Below, one piece after another: positions 2,980 through 60,857 of a stretch of 64,000 nt of DNA. Both the position numbers and the translations under genes were made by a program. The stretch's first letter is position 1; each line of letters starts with the position of its first letter. Origin of the DNA: Mobula hypostoma (lineage: Eukaryota); assembly GCF_963921235.1 (NCBI RefSeq), contig NC_086108.1, forward strand, positions 76,448,001-76,512,000, written 5' to 3'. Under the pieces are notes generated by a model. It made no database searches. It had not been told where the DNA came from and saw nothing but the letters and a program-made list of their open reading frames with translations.

Positions 2980-3085
2980 TATAGTTCCTCCAGAAATAAA
3001 ATCTTTTGAAGGGAGAAACCTTGTACAGCAAGGTATATGCTGCTGTGGATTTTCCTGCAGCAAACACAATTTCAACACATTTCTT

Positions 3086-3866
3086 TAACACATCGGTACC
3101 AACACATCTTGACCCAATTAATTGGTTGCCCCAATTAGCCCAAGTTTCATGGAAACAGATAAAAAGGTGTAGGAAAGGCAAACTACCATATAATTGAGTA
3201 ACAAATTATGTTTTTAAATGAAATACAGAACAAATTAGAACTATCAATACTACTAAAATACTATAATACTGTGCATCAGTTCCTAATAGTTATCAACAGA
3301 GGAATTAAACTAGTGTACACCGCCATATTCTTTTGATTGACTGTAAATAAACAAAATCAGCGCAGACACCCAGTGCTTTCACACAATGTTCTTGATGATT
3401 GCATCTTTCGAAACTTTACTTTCATTATAATATACAAAATGATTGTTGACACCTTTAAATTCTTTGTAGTTTTTAACTTGTTGAAGTAGAGAAATCTGGC
3501 ATCTCTGAGCTTAAATACTCGAAACCACAGTGAGCAAAACACTCTGAATTATCTTACTGCTTATTTCTCACCAACTACCAGTGACAAAAATCACCGCTAT
3601 TTGAACACATACTCATACAATTGATGCTACTTAAAAACTGTTCACTTTAAGCATGGTACAGTGACTAACAGCCATCAAAGTGCACGTGACTGACGCTATT
3701 TAGAAACTGTTCAGCAACAGTCTCCTGTCCCAGTTAAGTGGCATAGTATCCCAAATAAACGAAGGAAATCCCACCTATTTTCTCTCAATTAGTTTCTGTT
3801 CTTTAGAAGTTGTCCGAAATAATCAGCTGTCCTGATTAACTAATGGCCCAATTAACTGGATTCCAT
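3086..3866. mobile_element. Tigger/pogo-like non-autonomous DNA transposon, left end eroded
   Basis: Both ends are similar to the element at 38363-38725 (e.g. tggcccaattaactggattcca). Confidence 0.6.
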
Positions 3867-3884
3867 ATATCCTTATGATAATCA

Positions 3885-4391
3885 GTCAGTCAGTCAGTGG
3901 GTACCGTCCCGAATCTGGGGTTGGTGGCCATGCACCTCCATCTTCTTTGATCTTGCGACAGCACCAAGTACAGCCTCTCCTCCAGTTTGTTCTCGCTGGC
4001 CACCTTGGCACCACCTGCCGCCGCCCCCACCGAACTCGAGCCCGAGGCCGTGTCTGCTTCCAGCCGCGGCCGCTTCTTCGAGCTCGGCCCTTCCTTAGGC
4101 GGAGGCCTTGGGCAGGTCCAGGCACACGGTGCAGCGCTCAAGTTCATCATGTCTCTTCTAACTAAGTGCATAGCATACGATTCGTAGATACGTGCTGAGG
4201 CTTTAATCTCTTCCACGGAAGATGGCCGTTGGCTCACAAGGAGCTCATCCGCCCTTTGTCAGGTCTTACTTATTTTTAATCCTGACGGGCTCCTCACACC
4301 CTCCTCACCAGACTAAGTCCGGTGGGAGAGCTGGCCCAAGTCGCCAACCACTCAACCACCACCCCCGGCCGAGCGCCGGCCCCCACTGAAT
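3885..4391 (-). mobile_element. Non-autonomous RTE-like retroelement (structured head plus RTE-type tail) with captured host gene fragment
   Basis: 13-bp TSD cttatgataatca (3872-3884, 4392-4404); (GACT)n tail; tail reads QDQRRWRCMATNP, like RTE ORF C-termini; GC/CpG-rich against AT-rich flanks. Confidence 0.8.
3958..4135 (-). pseudogene. ZFTRAF1: Circularly permuted fragment of ZFTRAF1/CYHR1 first coding exon
   Basis: Order in the element is [11 protein letters not shown](A) then EGPSSKKRPRLEA...ENKLEERLYLVL; the recalled gene order is KKR...[25 protein letters not shown]; joining the end GTGCTGT to the start GCTGCACC restores GTG CTG TGC TGC ACC (VLCCT). Confidence 0.82.
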
Positions 4392-4614
4392 CTTATGATA
4401 ATCACTCGTTTCTTTTTTGGCAATTGGAACTAATTGCTGTGCAGAAGGTTCTACTTGATAAATCCAATTTGTATGATGTTTTGTGTATTATTGGGTTCCA
4501 AGATGGAAGTTCAATGTTTTGATGCTACGGCTATGTCATCTGGGACTGACATTGCCACATTAACAGACACACCCTAAACAGTAATAACAGAATTATGAGA
4601 AAATATAGCAATAT

Positions 4615-4841
4615 CAGTCAGCTGGCTGGTGGCGTAGTGGCATCAGCGCTGGACTTTGGGGCGGAAGGTCCCGAGTTCGAATCCAGCTGGCTCCCGTGCA
4701 CTCTTTCCATCTGTGCTGGGTTGAGCTAGCAACTCGATCTCGTAAAAAAGAAATTGCCTGCTACAGAAACATCAACAGCAAAAAGTTCATGGCCTATGCT
4801 CTCTCGTGAGTTTGAAGGCAATTCCTCTCCTTTTTTCTCTC
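4615..4841 (+). mobile_element. tRNA-derived SINE
   Basis: A box tggcgtagtgg, B box gagttcgaatcc, non-tRNA body, imperfect TSD tatagcaatat/tataccaatat. Confidence 0.75.
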
Positions 4842-6174
4842 TATACCAATATAACTGGAAAGTAATTTAAATCCCCTCCCTCAAGTAACATTTACACTTG
4901 AAAAATCCATGATTAGCTCAATGGAACTATCCTCACAATCCTGATCTCATTGGAGTTTATTTCAAACTTTTACCCCAATGACGATGAATAAAGTAAGTTC
5001 TGCTAGCAAATAAAAGTAACAAATTAAATGCATTTTGCTCCTCTAACAGCAGCTGCTAATGAAAGAACACTGGGTTACAACAAAATGCATTAGTATCAAA
5101 TTTTGAATTTTTTTGTATTGTCGTAAGACAAAGGAACAAAAAGTAAACCAGATTTAATACTGACAGTTCAATATCATTCATAACCACACCTTAACATTGC
5201 AGCCAGAGTATAGCTATTTTAACCAGATATACTGTAAGCTCATGTAGATCTGACCTTGAGCAATAAAGCAAAAAAATTCACCAACCCAAATTATAATTCT
5301 TTATCATTCATTTTACACAGTCACTAAGTTCAAAGCAACCCCAGTCTAGTTTAGAGAGAAAAAGAGAAAAGGAAAAGAGGAAGAGCTCAAAATATGGTCC
5401 CATAAAATAATTCAAATCATTAGCTACACCAGAGAGAAAAAAACAATAAATCTATTCAGCATCACTATTTTTCAGCTTTGCCAGAAATAATGAGGTGGGA
5501 GGATGTGCTACAAGCCAGACAGAAAGGTTGATGAAACACTGGTGACTCTACAGAACAGATTCCAAAACTGCACACTGTATTCTAATTGGGCACTTTATTT
5601 ATTTTTCTGTAAAACGATAGGATTACTTCCCTTGATCTAGTCTTCATTCCTCTTTGTTAAACTTCACAAATTCTTTTTTGAATAGCTGCCAGATGCAGGA
5701 TGATGTCGGCATGATCTATTCACCCTGACCCCAAGATCCTTGGTCAATACTTTTCTATTAATTTTGTAATCCTCTGTCCGTTTCCTATCCCTCAATACGT
5801 TACTTTGCATTTATTTACATTACACTATGAGTCATTGGCTCAAGTACTAAGCCTCCAGTTTTGCTCCCTAACATATATTTTATCACTTTCTTCTTGCTCC
5901 TTCATATTCTATCGTTCCTCAATATATTTTTTAACAAAATGTTTGGTCATTGGTGTTACCTTTATAAATGTTACTGCATTAAATTTGATCCAATGATGCT
6001 CCTGTGAAGCAACATGTACTGATTTACAACATTAGAAACGTTATGTAAATATAAATACAAATTGGTGATCTTGGTGCTAACATGCACAAAAATAGTTCTT
6101 CTCTATTCTTCACCATGATAACTGCATCTTCCTATACTACACAATTTTTATTATGGATGTAGATTGGGGGGGGG

Positions 6175-20473: not shown

Positions 20474-20969
20474 CAGACATCCCACCCTGCAAAAACTCAT
20501 TTCAGGGAGGTAGCACCATCAATTTGCGGGAGACTCCCGGAACTTCCGGGAGAGGTGGGATGTCTGCAATAGAGTAGCTCCTTAGCAGCAAGCCAGCTAG
20601 TTTAAATAACGTTAGCTATGCTAATGAACGAATGACACCTGTTAAACTCACCTCAACATGTCTTTTACAGTCTTAACCCACCATGGGCAATAGAAAAGTC
20701 ACTGTTGCAAACAGTGCAGTGATCGACACTGTGATTATTTTTGACCCCTATTAGGCAGGAGTACACTTTAGAGTAATCTGGGGTGACGTAAGTTTTATAT
20801 TTTCTTTTTTTGGAACACTCTCCCATGGCACTCTCGCTCTCTCTCTCACGCTCTCTCTTGCTCATAAAAAAATTGATTTCCGGAATATTGTATATAATTT
20901 GCAGGCATCAGGGAGCCACTATTAATATGCGGGAGACTCCCAGAACTTCCGGGAGAGGTGGGACGTCTG
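20474..20969 (-). mobile_element. Non-autonomous hAT-like DNA transposon with 6-bp TSD
   Basis: TIR cagacatcccacc / ggtgggacgtctg; TSD cagtac (20468-20473, 20970-20975); minus-strand relic CTVCNSDFSIAHGG..DCKRHVE (BED-like zinc finger) followed by gtgagt. Confidence 0.8.
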
Positions 20970-22208: not shown

Positions 22209-22281
22209 CTTTTTGAGATTAATCCACTTCTTGAAGTAATCAGGGACTGGCAGACCCAAGTACTGGCATTGTCCTGGCAGC
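22209..22281 (-). CDS. ERI3: Internal coding exon of ERI1 exoribonuclease family member 3 (DEDDh 3'-5' exonuclease)
   Basis: Minus strand ctctttccttttttctcttag|G CTG CCA GGA...CTC AAA AAG|gtactt; 73 bp, reading (M)LPGQCQYLGLPVPDYFKKWINLKK, which matches the recalled vertebrate ERI3 segment MLPGQCQYLGLPVADYFKQWINLKK; strong polypyrimidine acceptor and GT donor. Confidence 0.93.
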
Positions 22282-28983: not shown

Positions 28984-30682
28984 CCGTCTAGCGGAATTAG
29001 TCCTTACTCTTAATAATTTCTCCTTTGGCTCCTCCCACTTCCCTCAAACTAAAGGTGTAGCCATGGGCACCTGTATGGGTCCCAGCTATGCCTGTGTTTT
29101 TGTTAGCTTTGTGGAACAATCCACGTTCCAAGCCTATACAAGTCTGTCCCCCACTTTTCCTTTGCTACATTGACGACTGCATTGGCGCTGCTTCCTGCAC
29201 GCATGCTGAGCTCGTTGACTTCATTAACTTTGCCTCCAACTTTCACCCTGCCCTCAAGTTTACCTGGTCCATTTCCGACACCTCCCTCCCCCTTCTTGAT
29301 CTTTCTGTCTCTGTCTCTGGAGACAGCTTATCTACTGATGTCTACTATAAGCCTACGGACTCTCACAGCTACCTGGACTATTCCTTTTCCCACCCTGTCT
29401 CTTGCAAAAATGCACCCTTCTCGCAATTCCTCCATCTCCGCCGCAACTGCTCTCAGGATGAGGCTTTTCATTCCAGGACGAAGGAGCTGTCTTCCTTTTT
29501 TAAAGAAAGGGGCTTCCCTTCCTCCACCATCAACTCTGCTCTCAAACGCATCTCTCCCATTTCTCACACATCTGCTCTCACCCCATCCTCCCGCCAGCCC
29601 ACTAGGAATAGGGATCCCCTTGTCCTCACCTACCACCCCACCAGCCTCCGGGTCCAACAAATAATTCTCCGTAACTTCCACCATCTCCAACGGGATCCCA
29701 CCACCAAGCACATCTTTCCTTTCTCCCCTCTTTCTGCTTTCCGCAGGGGTCGCTCCCTATGCGACTCCATTCTCCATTCATCCCCCCCCATTTCCTTCCC
29801 ACCGATCTCCCTCCTGGCACTTATCCTTGTAAGCAGAACAAGTGCTACACATGCCCTTACACTTCCTCCCTCACCACCATTCAGGGCCTCAGACAGTCCT
29901 TCCAGGTGAGGCAACACTTCACCTGTGAGTCGGCTGGGGTGATATACTGCGTCCGGTGCTCCCGGTGCGGCCTTCTATATATTGACGAGACCCGACGCAG
30001 ACTGGGAGACCGCTTTGCTGAACACCTACGCTCTGTCCGCCAGAGAAAGCAGGATCTCCCAGTGGCCACACATTTTAATTCCATGTCCTATTCCCATTCT
30101 GATATGTCTATCCACGGCCTCCACTACTGTCAAGATGAAGCCACACTCAGGTTGGAGGAACAACACCTTATATTCCGTCTGGGTAGCCTCCAACCTGATG
30201 GTATGAACACTGACTTTCTAACTTCCGTTAACGCCCCTCCTCCCCTTCATACCCATCCCTAATTTATTTATTTATTTATCCCCCCCCTCCCCCCCGTCTC
30301 TCTTTTTTCTCCCTCTGTCCCTCTCACTATAACTCCTTGCCTACTCTCCATCTTCCTCTGGCGCTCCCCTCCCACTTTCTTTCTCCCTAGGCCTCCCGTC
30401 CCATGATCCTCTCCCTTCTCCAGCCTTGTATCCATTTTGCCAATCAACTTTCCAGCTCTCAGCTCCATCCCTCCCCTCCTGTCTTCTCCTATCATTTTGG
30501 ATCTCCCCCTCCCCCTTTCAAATCTCTTACTATCTCTTCTCTCAGTTAGTCCTGACGAAGGGTCTCGGCCTGAAACATCCACTGTGCCTCTTCCTGTAGA
30601 TGCTGCCTGGCCTGCTGCGTTCACCAGCATTTTTGTGTGTGTTGCTTAAATTTCCAGCATCTGCAGATTTCCTTGTGTTTGC
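28984..30682 (+). mobile_element. Penelope-like element (probably Neptune type), 5'-truncated: RT, Cys-rich linker, GIY-YIG endonuclease and terminal repeat
   Basis: KGVAMGT...YIDDC...LPLLDL...VYYKPTDSHSYL; CKQNKCYTC; VIYCVRCSRCGLLYIDETRRRLGDRFAEH; pyrimidine-rich 3' region ending in a hammerhead-bearing repeat. Confidence 0.93.
30548..30583 (+). ncRNA. Minimal type I hammerhead ribozyme motif of the Penelope terminal repeat, mutated
   Basis: agtc-CTGACGA-agggtctcggcct-GAAA-catc-cact versus cgtc-gact in better-preserved copies. Confidence 0.7.
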
Positions 30683-34610: not shown

Positions 34611-36911
34611 CAATTAGAAGGGAGAACACGTTGGACCTTGTTTACACAAACATTCCCGACACGTAACGGGCGAAGCCCAGCCCCCACCACGGCTACTCAG
34701 ACCACATCTCTGTTTTGCTAATCCCAGCATACAGACTGCTCATCAGGCACTCCAGACCAGTTCAGAAGCAGGTGAAAACCTGGCCAGCAGGAGCCATCTC
34801 TGCTCTTCAAGACTGCTTTGAGCACACTGACTGGCACACGTTCAGGGAGGCTGCAACCGATGGCGACTCTACCAACTTAGAGGAGCACACAGCATCAGTG
34901 ACTAGCTACATCAGCAAGTGCATCAATGACGTCACTGTGGCCAAGACCATCACTACACGTGCTAACCAGAAGCCATTCATTACCGCGGAGGTGCGTGCAC
35001 TACAGAAGACCCGTGACTCCACCTTCAGAGCAGGTAACAAGGCAGCCCTAACAACAGCGAGTACCAAACTGTCCGGGGCCATCAGAGAGGGAAAGCGTGC
35101 ACATGCCCAGCGAATCCACAGCTACTTCCAGGACAGCGGCGACACACGGCACATGTGAAAGGACATTCAGGACATCACCAACTACAAGACAACACCACCT
35201 GCCTGTGCTGGTGATGCCTCCCTCCCAGATGCGTTGAATGACTTCTACGCTCGTTTTGAGGCGGAAAATTATGTGGTGGCGAGGAAGACCACCCCTCCTC
35301 CAAACGACCAGCTGCTGTGTCTTACTGTGGCCGATGTGAGGAGAACCCTGTGTAGGGTCAGCCCACTGAAGGCTGCTGGATCAGACAATATTCCTGGCAG
35401 AGTGCTTAGAGGATGTGCAGACCAGCTAGCTGAGATTCTCACTGACATCTTCAACATCTCCCTGAGCAGCGCCGTTGTTCCTACGTGCTTCAAGGCCGCC
35501 ACCATCGTCCCCGTGCCGAAGAAGTCTTCAGTGTCCTGCCTCAACGACTACCGTCTCGTCGCACTCACATCCATCATCATGAAGCATTTCGAGAGGCTCG
35601 TCATGAGGCCAAGACCCTGCTGCCCCCCTCACTGGACACCCTGCAGTTTGCGTATCGTCCCAACCGTTCAACAGATGAAGCCATTGCCATCACCCTCCAC
35701 CTGGCCCTAACCCACCTGGACAAAAAAGACACGTACATTCGAATGCTGTTCATAGATTTCAGTTCAGCATTCAACACAATCATTCCTCAGAAACTGATTG
35801 GAAAACTGAGCCTACTGGGCCTGAACACCTCCTTCTGCAACTGGATCCTAGACTTCCTGACTGGGAGACCTCAGTCAGCCCGGATTGGAAGCAGCATCTC
35901 CAACACCATCACACTGAGCACGGGGGCCCCCAGGGCTGTGTGCTCAGTCCACTGCTGTTCACTCTGCTGACCCACGACTGTGCAGCAATACACAGCTCGA
36001 ACCACATCATCAAGTTCGCCGATGACATGACCGTGGTGGGTCTCATCAACGAGAATGATGAGTCAGCATACAGAGAGGAGGTGCAGTGGCTAATGGACTG
36101 GTGCAGAGCCAACAACCTGTCTCTGAATGTGAACAAAATAAAAGAGATGGTTGTTGACTTCAGGAGGACGCGGAGTGACCACTCTCCGCTGAACATCGAT
36201 GACTCCTCCGTAGAGATCGTTAAGAGCACCAAATTTCTTGGTGTTCACCTGGCAGAGAATCTCACCTGGTCCCTCAACACCAGCTCCATAGCAAAGAAAG
36301 CCCAGCAGTACCTCTACTTTCTGCGAAGGCTGAGAAAAGTCCATCTCCCAACCCCCATCCTCACCACATTCTACAGAGGTTGTATTGAGAGCATCCTGAG
36401 CAGCTGCATCACTGCCTAGTTTGGAAATTGCACCATCTCGGATCGCAAGACCCTGCAGTGGATAGTGAGGTCATCTGAGAAGATTATCGGGGTCTCTCTT
36501 CCCACCATTACTGACATTTAAACCACACGCTGCATCCGTAAAGCAAGCAGCATTACGAAGGACCCCATGCACCCCTCATACAAACTCTTCTCCCTCCCGC
36601 CATCTGGCAAAAGGCACCAAAGTATTCAGGCTCTCACGACCAGACTATGTAACAGTTTCTTCCCCCAAGCCATCAGACTCCTCAATACCCAGAGCCTGGA
36701 CTGACACCAACCTACTGCCCTCTACTGTGCACATTGTCTTGTTTAGTATTTATCGTAAAGCCTGCACTGTTTTGTGCACTTTATGCAGTCCTGGGAACGT
36801 CTGTAGTCTAGTGTAGTTTTTGCACCATGGTCCTGAAAAACGTTGTCTCGTTTTTACCAGCAGTTATGGTCGAAATGACAATAAAAATTGACTTGACTTG
36901 ACTTGACTTGA
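34611..36911 (+). mobile_element. Rex1/Babar-clade LINE, long and relatively young copy
   Basis: [60 protein letters not shown]; tail aataaaaa(ttgac)5. Confidence 0.93.
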
Positions 36912-37590
36912 TAGGAGGGGAGGAGAAGATGGCGGCACGATGCAGCGCACACGGCTGCTCCGAAATGATATCGTATTTGTTAAATAGGGGCCGTGCACAA
37001 TCCTGATTTGATGGAGACAGACGTGAGAAGCACGGAGGAACATCTGGAGAAATTTCTGAAATGCCCGCTTCGCTGCCGCTGCTACTGTGCGATCGAGAAT
37101 CTCTGGAGGGGAAAGCCCCAAATCTTCCACTTTGCCTATTGTCTGTTGCCGGGGCTGGGGTCGAAGCACTCGGCAGAGATGGTGCTCGGTGTCGGAGGGC
37201 TGGTCGGAGGCTCGAAGTTTTCAGACGGACTCAAGAGTCGGCTGTGGTCGGGTGCTTCCAGGGTGCTGCATTGGCAAGTTTGCGGCGCTGGAGGTTCATG
37301 GCAGGAAGAGAGTTTCTCTTCCTTCTACCGTCTGCGTGAGATGATGGGACTTAGGAGAGACTTTGAGACTTCTTTTTTTACTGTGCCCATGGTCTGTTCT
37401 TATCAAATTACAGGATTGCTTTGCACTGTTGTAACTACATGTTATAATTATCTGGTCTTTGTCAGTTTTTCAGTCTTGTTTGTCTTGTGTTTCTGTGATA
37501 TCATTCTGGAGGAACATTGTATCATTTCTTAATGCATGCATTACTAAATGACAATAAAAGACTCTGTGTCCTCATAATCTAATAATCTAA
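36912..37590 (+). mobile_element. Non-autonomous element with GC-rich head and Rex1-like tail
   Basis: Starts ggagaagatggcggc; CpG-rich body without RT motifs; ends aaatgacaataaaa...(taatct)n, like the adjacent Rex1 tail. Confidence 0.6.
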
Positions 37591-38725: not shown

Positions 38726-41077
38726 TACATACATATGAATAAATAGTTCTGTTTTCATGCTTGCTAGTTTACTGGGCTTTGAGCTTCTAAAGCTTTGCCT
38801 TGACAAAACACACACACGCAAGGTGTTTGTCTAAAATTACAGTCATAATCTACTGATGTAACTATTTTATAACTGAAACCCAGCCATAATGGTAGGACAG
38901 CACAACAATGCTGCAGATTTAAGGAAAATGGTTGATTTATTGAACTCAGTTTTATAACTTCTGGACCATTTCTCCCAGAAGGAACCTTCAAGTAATGCTG
39001 TCCTTTTACCAGTGAGGAAAGATCATCTAATCCTCAATCAAAATCTGTTTCATGATCATCCAGCAAAAACTGTAAATGTGACATCTCAAGTAGGACTCAA
39101 CCAATAATCCAGATGAAAACATGAAAACTGTTCTTTTTGTTAGCGAAATGATTCTAGTCATAGTTTGTCAATGAACTGAAACTTTCTGCTTCTGACCATT
39201 TGTTTACCCTACTTCTTGTATGTCACATGCAATAAGACCCTTTAATTTATTAGAATGTGGCACGCAAAAATAGCCCAAATTAATTTCCATAGTCCCTTAT
39301 AATGGGATAAAATAACTGAGGTTCCAGTTGCTTGTTGCGTTCATTTTTCATTGCATGTCTCTTCTAACTTTTGTCTTTGACCTTGCACACTTCCAGCTAA
39401 GCTTAACATATGCAAGGCACAGCACATCAGCTTCCAAGTCAACATATTTTAAGATGAGCAGTATATTCTACAGATAATCAGCCATTTCAGTAGCTAATCA
39501 GTATCGCACAATTCTATCATTCACTGTTCCTCTCACCTCTACCTCTTCTCTCTCTTCTGCAGCCATTTTCACTTTAAACTTTCAGAAGACACAACTGTTG
39601 TTCTTCAATAGCCTTTCCCAATCCCTTTCAATAGAACCCACCATCGCATCATCTCCTCCTTCACCACCATTCAGGGCCCCAAACAGTCCTTCAAGGTGAG
39701 GCAACACTTCACTATGAGTCTATTGGAGTCACCTATTGTATCTGGTGCTTCTGGTGCAGCCTCCTCTACATCGGTAAGACCTGATATATATATACACATA
39801 CATACATCAGGGTCAGTTTGTCAAGCACCTTTGCTCTGTCAGTCACAAAAGGCAAGATCTCCCAGTTCAATTTCAAATGACTTCCCATTCCCATTCTAAC
39901 ACTTCTGCTCATGGCCTCCTGTACTGTCATGATGAGACCAAACTTAAATTGGAGGAGAAACACCTCATACTCTGACTGGGTAGCCTCCAAATCAATGGCA
40001 TAAACATCAATTTCTTTAACTTCCAGTACCTTCTTGTCCCTCCTTCCTTTTTTCCATTTCCTATTCTAGTTATCCTCTCACTCCTCTTCTCCCATCATGG
40101 CCATCATCACTTTCTCTTGTTCTCCTCCTCCTTCCCTTTCCTTCCACGGTCCACTGAAGTTCCAAAAGAAGTTGGAGGCAAAATCAGATGCACGTCAACT
40201 CTGGCAGGATTTGCAGGCCATTAATTCCTACAAAGTGAAACTAACACAATGAATGGCAGTGGTGCTTCATTTCCAGATGAGCTCAATGCCTTTATGCTCG
40301 CTTTGAAAGGGAGAATAAAACTACAGATATGCGAATCCCTGCAGCACCAGTGACCCTGTGATCTCTGTCTCAGAGACAGATGTCAGGGTGTCTTTCAATA
40401 GGATGAACCATCACAAGGTGACATGCCCCAGTAGAGTACCTGGCAGCGTCTTAAAACCTGTGCCAGTCAACTGGCAAAGGTGTTCAAACACATTTTCAAT
40501 CTCGACTTGCTACAGCCCGAAGTTCCTACCTGCTTTAAAAGGGCAGCAATTATACTATTAGCCATGAAGAGCATGGTGAGCTGCCTTAATGACAATCATC
40601 CAGCCATACTTAAAACTACGGTAATGAAGTGCTTTGAGAGATTGTTTATAGCTAGAATTAACACCTATCTCAGCAAGGACCTGGACCCACTGCAATTCAA
40701 TTGAAAAAGAAGTGAATGCAGTTACTATTACTAGGGGAAAGGTGCTCAAAAAGCTGGAAGACCTAAGGGTACATAAGTCACCAAGAGCAGATGAACTGCA
40801 CCCTAGGATTCTGAAAGAGGTAGTGGTCGAGGTTGTGGAGGCATTAGTAATGAACATTCAAAAATCATTGGACTCTGGCATGGTGCCAGAGAACTCAAAC
40901 ATTGCAAATGTCACTCCACTCTTTAAGAAAGAAGGAAGGCAGCAGAAAGGAAATTATAGACCAGTTAGCCTGCAGAAAGGAAATTAAAGACCAGTTAGCT
41001 TGACCTCAGTGATTGGGAACATGTTGGAGTCAATTGTTAAGGATGAGGTTATGGAGCACTTGATAGGACAAAGTCAG

Positions 41078-41329
41078 GCAACAGACATCAAAGTTGCTGG
41101 TGAACGCAGCAGGCCAAGCAATGCCTCTAGGAAGAGGTACAGTTGACGTTTCGGGCTGAGACCCTTCGTCAGGACTAACTCTTCTTTCAGTTAGTCCTGA
41201 CGAAGGGTCTCGGCCCAAAACGTCGATTGTACCTCTTCCTAGAGATGCTGCCTGGCCTGCTGCGTTCACCAGCAACTTTGATGTGTGTTGCTTGAATTTC
41301 CAGCATCTGCAGAATTCCTTGTGTTTGTG
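41078..41329. mobile_element. Palindromic Penelope terminal-repeat insertion carrying two inverted hammerhead motifs
   Basis: 103-bp arms 41078-41180 / 41189-41291, 8-bp spacer, 38-bp unpaired right tail, 13-bp TSD aggacaaagtcag (41065-41077, 41330-41342). Confidence 0.92.
41141..41176 (-). ncRNA. Minimal hammerhead ribozyme motif (core intact, first helix I pair mismatched)
   Basis: agtc-CTGACGA-agggtctcagccc-GAAA-cGTC-aact; the plus-strand partner (41193-41228) has GAAA changed to AAAA. Confidence 0.75.
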
Positions 41330-58600: not shown

Positions 58601-59442
58601 GGAATTAAATGCAGCATCTCCAAGTTTGCGGATGACACGAAACTGGGCGGCAGTGTTAGCTGTGAGGAGGATGCTAAGAGGATGCAGGGTGACTTGGATA
58701 GGTTGGGTGAGTGGGCAAATTCATGGCAGATGCAATTTAATGTGGATAAACGTGAAGTTATCCACTTTGGTGGCAAAAATAGGAAAACAGATTATTATCT
58801 GAATGGTGGCCAATTAGGAAAAGGGGAGGTGCAATGAGACCTGGGTGTCATTATACACCAGTCATTGAAAGTGGGCATGCAGGTACAGCAGGCGGTGAAA
58901 GAGGCGAATGCTATGCTGGCATTTATAGCGAGAGGATTCGAGTACAGGAGCAGGGAGGTACTACTGCAGTTGTACAAGGCCTTGGTGAGACCACACCTGG
59001 AGTATTGTGTGCAGTTTTGGTCCCCTAATCTGAGGAAAGACATCCTTGCCATAGAGGGAGTGCAAAGAAGGTTCACCAGATTGATTCCTGGGATGGCAGG
59101 ACTTTCATATGAAGAAAGACTGGATGAACTGGGCTTGTACTCGTTGGAATTTAGAAGATTGAGGGGGGATCAGATTGAAACGTATAAAATCCTAAAGGGA
59201 CTGGACAGGCTAGATGCAGGAAGATTGTTCCCGATGTTGGGGAAGTCCAGAACGAGGGGTCACAGTTTGAGGATAAAGGGGAAGCCTTTTAGGACCGAGA
59301 TTAGGAAAAACTTCTTCTCACAGAGAGTGGTGAATCTGTGGAATTCTCGGCCACAGGAAACAGTTGAGGCCAGTTCATTCAACACACATCAAAGTTGCTG
59401 GTGAACGCAGCAGGCCAAGCAGCATCTGTAGGAAGAGGTGCA

Positions 59443-59476
59443 GTCGACGTTTCAGGCCAAGACCCTTCGTCAGGAC
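59443..59476 (-). ncRNA. Minimal type I hammerhead ribozyme motif, core intact
   Basis: gtc-CTGACGA-agggtcttggcct-GAAA-cGTC-gac; helix I gtc/gac, palindromic ACGT in place of helix III. Confidence 0.8.
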
Positions 59477-59477
59477 C

Positions 59478-59511
59478 GTCCTGACGAAGGGTCTCGGCCT
59501 GAAACGTCGAC
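59478..59511 (+). ncRNA. Minimal type I hammerhead ribozyme motif, core intact
   Basis: gtc-CTGACGA-agggtctcggcct-GAAA-cGTC-gac; predicted cleavage 3' of C59508. Confidence 0.8.
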
Positions 59512-60857
59512 TGCACCTCTTCCTACAGATGCTGCTTGGCCTGCTGTGTTCACCAGCAACTTTGATGTGTGTTGCTTGAATTTCCAGCATCTGCAGAATT
59601 CCTGTTGTGAGGCCAGTTCATTGGCTATATTTAAGAGGGAGTTAGATATGGCCCTTGTGGCTACGGGGATCAGAGGGTATGGAGGGAAGGCTGGTGCAGG
59701 GTTCTGAGTTGGATGATCAGCCATGATCATAATAAATGGCGGTGCAGGCTCGAAGGGCCGAATAGCCTACTCCTGCACCTATTTTCTATGTTTCTACGTA
59801 TCTCAATTCTGCACACCTCCTCGTCACCATCTGAAATTCAGCCGACAGTAATTGTGTCACCAGCAAATTTATAGATGGCATTTAAGCTGTGCCTAACCAA
59901 GCAGTCATGGGTGTAGCTGGAGTAGAGCTGTGGGCTAAGCACACATCCTTGAGGTGTTGATTGTCAGCAAGATGGAGATGTTATTTCCAATCTGCAGTGA
60001 CTGGGGTCTCCCGATGAGGAAGTCAAAGATCTGGTTGCAGAGGAAGGTACAGAGGCCCAGGTTTTGCAGCTTGTTGATTAAAACAAGGGCCTGATTGTGT
60101 TGATTGCTGAGCTGTCATCAATAAACAGCAGCTTGACATAGATATTGCTATTGTCCAGATGATATAAGGCTGAGTAGACAGCCAGTGAGACTGCATCTGC
60201 TACAGACCTACTGTGGCGATAGGCAGATGGCAGTGTGTCCAGGTACTGAACTTGCTTAAGCAGGAGTTGATTCTGACCATGACCAACCTCTTAAATCACT
60301 TAGCACAGTAGATGGCAATGCAACTGGGTGATAGTCATTGAGGCAGCTCACCCTGCTCTTCTCGGGCACTGGTATGATTATCATCCTTTTGAAGCCGATG
60401 GGGCCCTCTGACTGGAGCAGTGAAAGATTGAAGATGTCCTTGAACACTCCTGCCAGTTGATTGGCACAGATTTTCAGTGCACTACCAGGTACACCATTAG
60501 GGTCTGACACCTTGTCATTGGCCTCTGAGACAGAGATCACAAGGTCAACAGATGCTGCAAGGATCTGCCCAGGTCGAGTTTTATTCTCCCTTTCAAAGCA
60601 TGCATAAAAGGCATTGAGCTCATCTTGGAGTGAAGCATCACAGCCATTGATGATGGTCAGTTTCACCTGCAAAGTGATGGTCTACAAATCTTGCCAGAGC
60701 TGACTCCCACTACTGCATTTGGTGCTCATGATGTGATCGCTTCCAGTACAACCTGACATACTGATCCTTAATTTGGGCTAGCAAAGGTTATAGCAATTTG
60801 TAGGGAAATCCCTATTCCCTCTCTGTTGCCCATCCATGAAAAATAATGCACAAAAAT

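Follow-up and report, generated by a model that had tools for sequence, protein, structure and literature searches.

The 507-bp retroelement described here carries a rearranged piece of a host gene. It lies on the minus strand of a 64-kb window (the whole stretch of DNA that was analysed), and its 178-base middle part is, at the level of protein comparison, an exact AB-to-BA rotation of a coding piece of ZFTRAF1, also known as CYHR1. The likely reading is that this is a copy of a non-autonomous RTE-type element, in which the rotated ZFTRAF1 fragment is enclosed by the 5' leader of a LINE and by the final ~70 bases at the 3' end of a LINE; a founder would have captured the fragment as a circle, and the family would then have been amplified. 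The element is probably one of many copies. Its parts, and a nearby exon of ERI3, are as follows.

3885..4391, minus strand: whole 507-bp non-autonomous retroelement, single copy in the window (blastn of the window).
3872..3884, no strand: target-site duplication, copy at the element's 3' end, exact 13-bp repeat.
4392..4404, no strand: target-site duplication, copy at the element's 5' end, exact 13-bp repeat.
3882..3897, minus strand: (GACT)n microsatellite tail, which shares 3 bases with the target duplication.
3885..3957, minus strand: LINE-like 3' end, comprising the last 21 codons, the stop and the tail; the likeness to RTE is putative.
3958..4108, minus strand: captured block A, ZFTRAF1 residues 60-112 of protein P0003 plus the first base of codon 113 (tblastn).
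4101..4135, minus strand: captured block B, the last two bases of codon 113 plus residues 114-124 (tblastn).
4101..4108, minus strand: 8-base overlap of the two block alignments, the predicted microhomology at which a circle would have closed.
4136..4391, minus strand: 256-bp head, a folded leader and presumed LINE 5' end, with an A-box-like motif and no B box.
3890..4237, minus strand: chimeric open frame with a GTG start, 93 codons from its first ATG, with no matching protein.
22209..22281, minus strand: 73-base coding exon of ERI3, matched to the human protein (E 9e-11 to chain 7k05_A).

The peptide encoded by 3956-4108 matched three of 84 candidate proteins, all of them ZFTRAF1/CYHR1, and the nearest protein relatives come from one sawfish and two skates, which makes a cartilaginous fish the probable source. 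Block A aligns at 4108-3959 (72% over 53 amino acids, E 8e-15 in the window). Block B aligns at 4133-4101 with 11 of 11 residues identical, in a different frame from block A, and represents the start of the RING finger, which begins at residue 114. In the element block B stands upstream of block A, so that the order is swapped relative to ZFTRAF1. Codon 113 is split between the two ends of the insert: its first base follows block A, and its other two bases precede block B. The insert (3958-4135, 178 bases) covers codons 60-124 without loss: set against the relatives' proteins, which are the only sequences with which it was compared, it is a cyclic shift of the source blocks with near-complete coverage. 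The proposal in the initial annotation that host coding sequence is carried is borne out.

The two blocks also suggest how the rotation arose. In block A's frame, the end of block B translates as R-P, the pair found at residues 60-61 of P0003 and at the same place in the skate proteins. In P0003 the first base of R60 and the second base of K122 delimit 187 bases, which a three-codon gap in the alignment brings down to 178. This spacing and the 8-base overlap predict a short direct repeat in the donor, exactly one insert length apart; the sawfish protein predicts a circle whose length is exactly 178 bases and whose ends joined through a short microhomology. At the borders with the rest of the element, 2-3 nt of gc/cgc microhomology had been proposed for both junctions. 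That suggestion is not confirmed: the insert is flanked by a 3-base direct repeat, but overlap with the captured sequence is confined to the head side (2 bases), the tail side having none. In Narcine bancroftii, two ZFTRAF1 models (P0012 and P0013) are missing residues 1-132, among them all of the captured region, for which an assembly gap or repeat masking of the exon could be responsible.

Three features support the view that the chimera was inserted in full by a single retrotransposition: the duplication around it, its tail, and a CpG retention that is the same for head and insert. The perfect 13-bp duplication is present as initially described; its occurrence by chance around 507 bases is estimated at ~2e-5 with 400 end offsets allowed. 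Further exact 13-mers at a spacing of 400-700 give 15 hits at four sites within the window. A 13-bp repeat alone is not unique here, but this one coincides with a sharp GC step and with the microsatellite tail. The (GACT)n tail is likewise real: on the plus strand it reads (TCAG)4, the sole run of three or more such units in the window. Poly(A) is absent from the element. The 3-base overlap between tail and duplication fits the established mode of priming in which the tail pairs with the target. With 507 bases and a longest stop-free frame of 122 codons, the element has no coding capacity for a LINE protein.

CpG content bears on both the unity and the age of the element. The many surviving CpGs reported earlier are confirmed, with 31 in the element and an observed/expected ratio of 0.72 versus 0.27 for the whole window; windows over the element rank second and third of 254. 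The ratios for head (0.73) and insert (0.72) are equal enough to suggest that these parts arrived together. The description of the element as young finds only loose support. CpG retention is high, but a neighbouring tRNA-type SINE reaches 0.76, so that the level in the element is not exceptional among local insertions, and the insert already carries an S110L change, within a stretch identical in all three relatives, which fits CpG decay. The copy is read as fairly recent, not as demonstrably polymorphic. The neighbouring SINE (4625-4760, plus strand) lies 220 bases from the element and has clear A and B boxes. The most CpG-rich stretch of the window, 36751-37507 (0.92), has 14-base direct repeats at 36873 and 37546 and is another fairly recent insertion.

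The window is ~39% GC, CpG-depleted and rich in LINE remnants. The element is on the same strand as the ERI3 exon, 17.8 kb downstream of it, which agrees with the sense orientation to ERI3 first proposed; a search with short motifs did not find other ERI3 exons in the window. The element presumably lies in the intron that follows this exon, and the locus is most likely that of an ordinary intronic copy. The window has other repeats. Two near-perfect fold-back pairs, at 41070-41299 and 59361-59593, belong to the same repeat family, with arms of 111-116 bp that are 89-91% complementary and 1-8 bases apart; they resemble inverted terminal repeats of Penelope-like elements. Broken reading frames at 29061-30262 (plus strand), similar in look to GIY-YIG and Penelope-type reverse transcriptase, gave nothing in a Pfam search at E 0.001. 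At 20525-20963 there is a CpG-containing direct repeat of ~36 bases, spaced 403, possibly the subterminal repeats of a small DNA transposon.

The ends of the element are LINE-like. An RTE origin is plausible on the basis of the microsatellite tail, the lack of poly(A) and a tail peptide of putative RTE C-terminal type. A 40-residue query containing the 21 tail codons matched none of one candidate at E 10 when longer protein lengths were allowed, and pattern scans detected no RTE-type motif elsewhere in the window. A single match of the head peptide to an IQ-repeat protein was rejected as spurious and unrelated. The 3' end itself (3885-3957) does not fold stably (z 0.6).

The head folds moderately well, its fold being equalled by three of 200 shuffles (z -2.3). 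Within it, 4210-4345 reaches z -3.1, a value inflated because the stretch was picked after the first fold had been seen. At 4215-4262 (minus strand), where the folded leader ends and the stop-free frame starts, there are competing pairings. Descriptor searches of the head for an HDV-like fold gave no match, and a motif search found no twister-like core. The A-box-like motif lies at 4358; no B box was found in the head with one mismatch allowed. Rfam and ARAGORN detected no small-RNA head, a weak negative since both also missed the tRNA-type SINE at 4625-4760; the six Rfam matches over 3000-6000 were all far below the gathering score. The name SINE, used in the initial annotation, therefore does not suit an element with no B box and no Pol III head found, which is better called a bipartite non-autonomous LINE. 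Its companion claim, that the flanks of the insert rejoin into an RTE-like C-terminus, also fails. It takes the insert to keep the peptides MNL and QDQRRWR in a common frame, since removal of 178 or 179 bases shifts them (1 or 2 modulo 3). This shift implies that part of the LINE is missing at the insert: it may have been lost during capture, or the head may be a LINE 5' region and the insert may mark a deletion junction.

A pathway consistent with these observations can be proposed. (i) The ZFTRAF1 piece has undergone an exact AB-to-BA rotation relative to its donor, as the protein comparison shows. (ii) The GC-rich 5' coding region of ZFTRAF1 would have released a 178-bp circle whose ends had joined through a short microhomology. 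After a single opening, the circle would have been used to patch a broken RTE copy, which lost LINE sequence in the process. (iii) The product, having kept leader and tail, would have been transcribed and copied into the ERI3 intron by the protein of a partner LINE acting in trans. This would have taken place by target-primed reverse transcription, the tail pairing with the target to prime synthesis. (iv) The element would have been copied many times, the fragment being a passive passenger of the family. The steps differ in strength. Mobilisation by a partner LINE protein is strongly indicated, and patching of a DNA circle into a broken RTE copy is held at about even confidence.

A DNA circle is favoured for step (ii) because of its agreement with circles of the germline in size, location and mode of closure, and because cyclic order marks circle insertion. 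In mouse, the available text of PMC10581685 describes germline extrachromosomal circular DNAs (eccDNAs) with a size peak near 180 bp, enriched at gene-rich and 5' regions and closed by microhomology. Cyclic block order is presented as the signature of circle insertion in the accessible part of 10.64898/2026.09.03.749254. The circles in the available part of 10.1101/2020.06.23.168138 are of kilobase size and arise at meiotic hotspots, and that work was set aside as a parallel.

The most serious competitor replaces step (ii) only and leaves the family in place. Capture may have occurred during reverse transcription, when the LINE enzyme would have left its RNA after ~70 bases, copied once round a small circular template, or two adjoining fragments of ZFTRAF1 mRNA with their order swapped, and returned to the leader. 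Such an origin is a real possibility, held with clearly less than even confidence. The insert has the same sense as the element, and the portion of PMC13174262 available reports this bias for template-switch or ligation chimeras. The orientation slightly favours an RNA template, but sense has a prior of 50%. The loss of LINE sequence implied by the frame shift also suits this route, and a stop after exactly one turn would be natural for an enzyme that meets its own cDNA. It needs two or three jumps, however, and the insert size and the predicted microhomology fit DNA circles.

The element is present once in the window by blastn. In a search of sequencing runs with words taken from 3500-4640, 20 of the 24 runs listed held some of the words, and none of those listed was an RNA run. 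Four runs of one organism, from one sample, held 0.61-0.63 of the words, and four runs of a second organism, also from one sample, held 0.41-0.42; 12 further runs, with shares of 0.09-0.20, were left out of account. The element makes up 0.43 of that stretch, and the share in the second organism is compatible with the chimera being present there without its flanks; an even divergence of ~2.8% over 3500-4640 explains the figure equally well. A 21-base tail motif gave six matches in metagenomes, none extending beyond 21-26 bases and all taken as chance, and a 22-base head motif gave none in viral and genome contigs. Neither these scans nor the protein searches turned up a second copy, an insert-free form or a partner LINE.

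These data leave some room for a one-off event. An ordinary bipartite RTE element could have inserted first, with the rotated fragment entering this copy alone, or the chimera could have formed during a single insertion. The single copy in 64 kb, the lack of a chimeric protein on record and the 3-base direct repeat around the insert would all suit such a history. It is nevertheless unlikely: CpG retention is equal in head and insert, the flanks do not rejoin cleanly, and a unique capture would hardly be expected to fall in a sampled window. A family is preferred because of the insertion as a unit, the equal CpG retention and that same low prior.

The 115-codon minus-strand frame noted earlier exists as a stop-free stretch (3893-4237) that runs through head, block A (which holds the basic KKR residues) and tail, but it starts with GTG and its length is within chance. 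The 122 stop-free codons in all are matched by 109 of 2000 dinucleotide shuffles on the sense strand and by 706 of 2000 on either strand, and the ATG-start length of 93 codons is reached by 108 of 2000. No solved structure matched the 115-residue translation, and the C-terminal 68 residues matched none of one candidate among proteins of near length. The frame is treated as a by-product. A functional frame or fragment, acting as a small basic protein or as an RNA that regulates ZFTRAF1 or helps the element to spread, is improbable. The continuous frame through head, block A and tail speaks for a protein; the missing ATG at the assigned start, the ease with which shuffles attain the length, the RING block out of frame and the lack of a matching protein speak against it.

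Least probable of all is an insert from a back-spliced circular RNA, as in circRNA-derived pseudogenes, since non-colinear order (their signature in the available text of PMC4897178) and a valine codon after block B in all three relatives, which places a GT after the block, are outweighed by a join between two points inside continuous coding sequence, by an AG acceptor that in register would need a residue 62 other than the relatives' Q or E, and by a block overlap explained by microhomology instead.

Amplification of a captured DNA circle leads to a more far-reaching proposal. One nucleosome-sized germline DNA circle, derived from the 5' coding region of a gene, may have become the middle body of a non-autonomous LINE whose copies then rose to hundreds or thousands, perhaps in several species; this extended form is advanced tentatively, at somewhat less than even confidence. 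Should the family prove real, an identifiable origin could be named for a short retroelement's middle body, and a circle of ~180 bp would have proved able to become heritable and then amplified. Small eccDNA would in this way be able to give rise to a lasting transposon module, and the element would preserve a single 178-bp circle as a dated fossil. With many copies, the age of the founder event could be estimated and the exact position of its junctions read. In practice, repeat masking could hide the first exon of the donor gene. What is unusual here, and can be tested, is the founder event; the present copy is probably an ordinary one.

None of the ingredients of the proposal is new: bipartite RTE elements, retroelements that capture exons and rotated insertions from circles have all been described. 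Their combination, or this element, was not found in the open-access literature with narrow sets of terms, subscription journals lying outside the scope of that search. The closest structural parallels are the bipartite, ORF-absent RTE LINEs Bov-A, WALLSI3, RTESINE2 and RTE-N2_Lch. In the available text of PMC5786205, RTE is one of four clades that make ORF-less bipartite elements, and Kojima (2018) calls the middle body of short retroelements enigmatic. As excerpted there, these LINEs are short and non-coding, combine a presumed LINE 5' part with the extreme 3' end, and have a microsatellite tail and no small-RNA head. The element is likewise short, with a microsatellite tail, a target-site duplication, no capacity to encode a LINE protein and no small-RNA head found; its LINE 5' part and 3' end are presumed. 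Unlike them, it holds a host coding fragment between its parts, an arrangement of which the available text gives no example, and its RTE homology is putative; six of its short motifs gave no informative match in the accessible part of the supplement to the same paper.

For the insert itself, the eccDNA-mediated AB-to-BA insertions of Zhang et al. 2026 (10.64898/2026.09.03.749254) show the same cyclic block order. Those are single insertions in mouse and human, and the string 'retrotranspos' is absent from the main text of that paper, whereas here the rotated piece lies inside a retrotransposed unit. Capture followed by amplification has its counterpart in SVA_F1 (MAST2) and in the chimpanzee STK40 SVA subfamily. 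In these, according to the available text of PMC6139936, a non-autonomous retroelement took up a piece of a host first exon on a single occasion and multiplied it afterwards, as amplification is proposed here. Those pieces are spliced and colinear; the ZFTRAF1 piece is internal and rotated. The circRNA-derived pseudogenes, as far as covered by the portion of PMC4897178 available, also reinsert non-colinear host exon sequence, sometimes in many copies (33 for circRFWD2). Their non-colinearity is shared with the present element, but their junction is an exon-exon back-splice, whereas the join in ZFTRAF1 links two points inside coding sequence and is enclosed by LINE-like ends.
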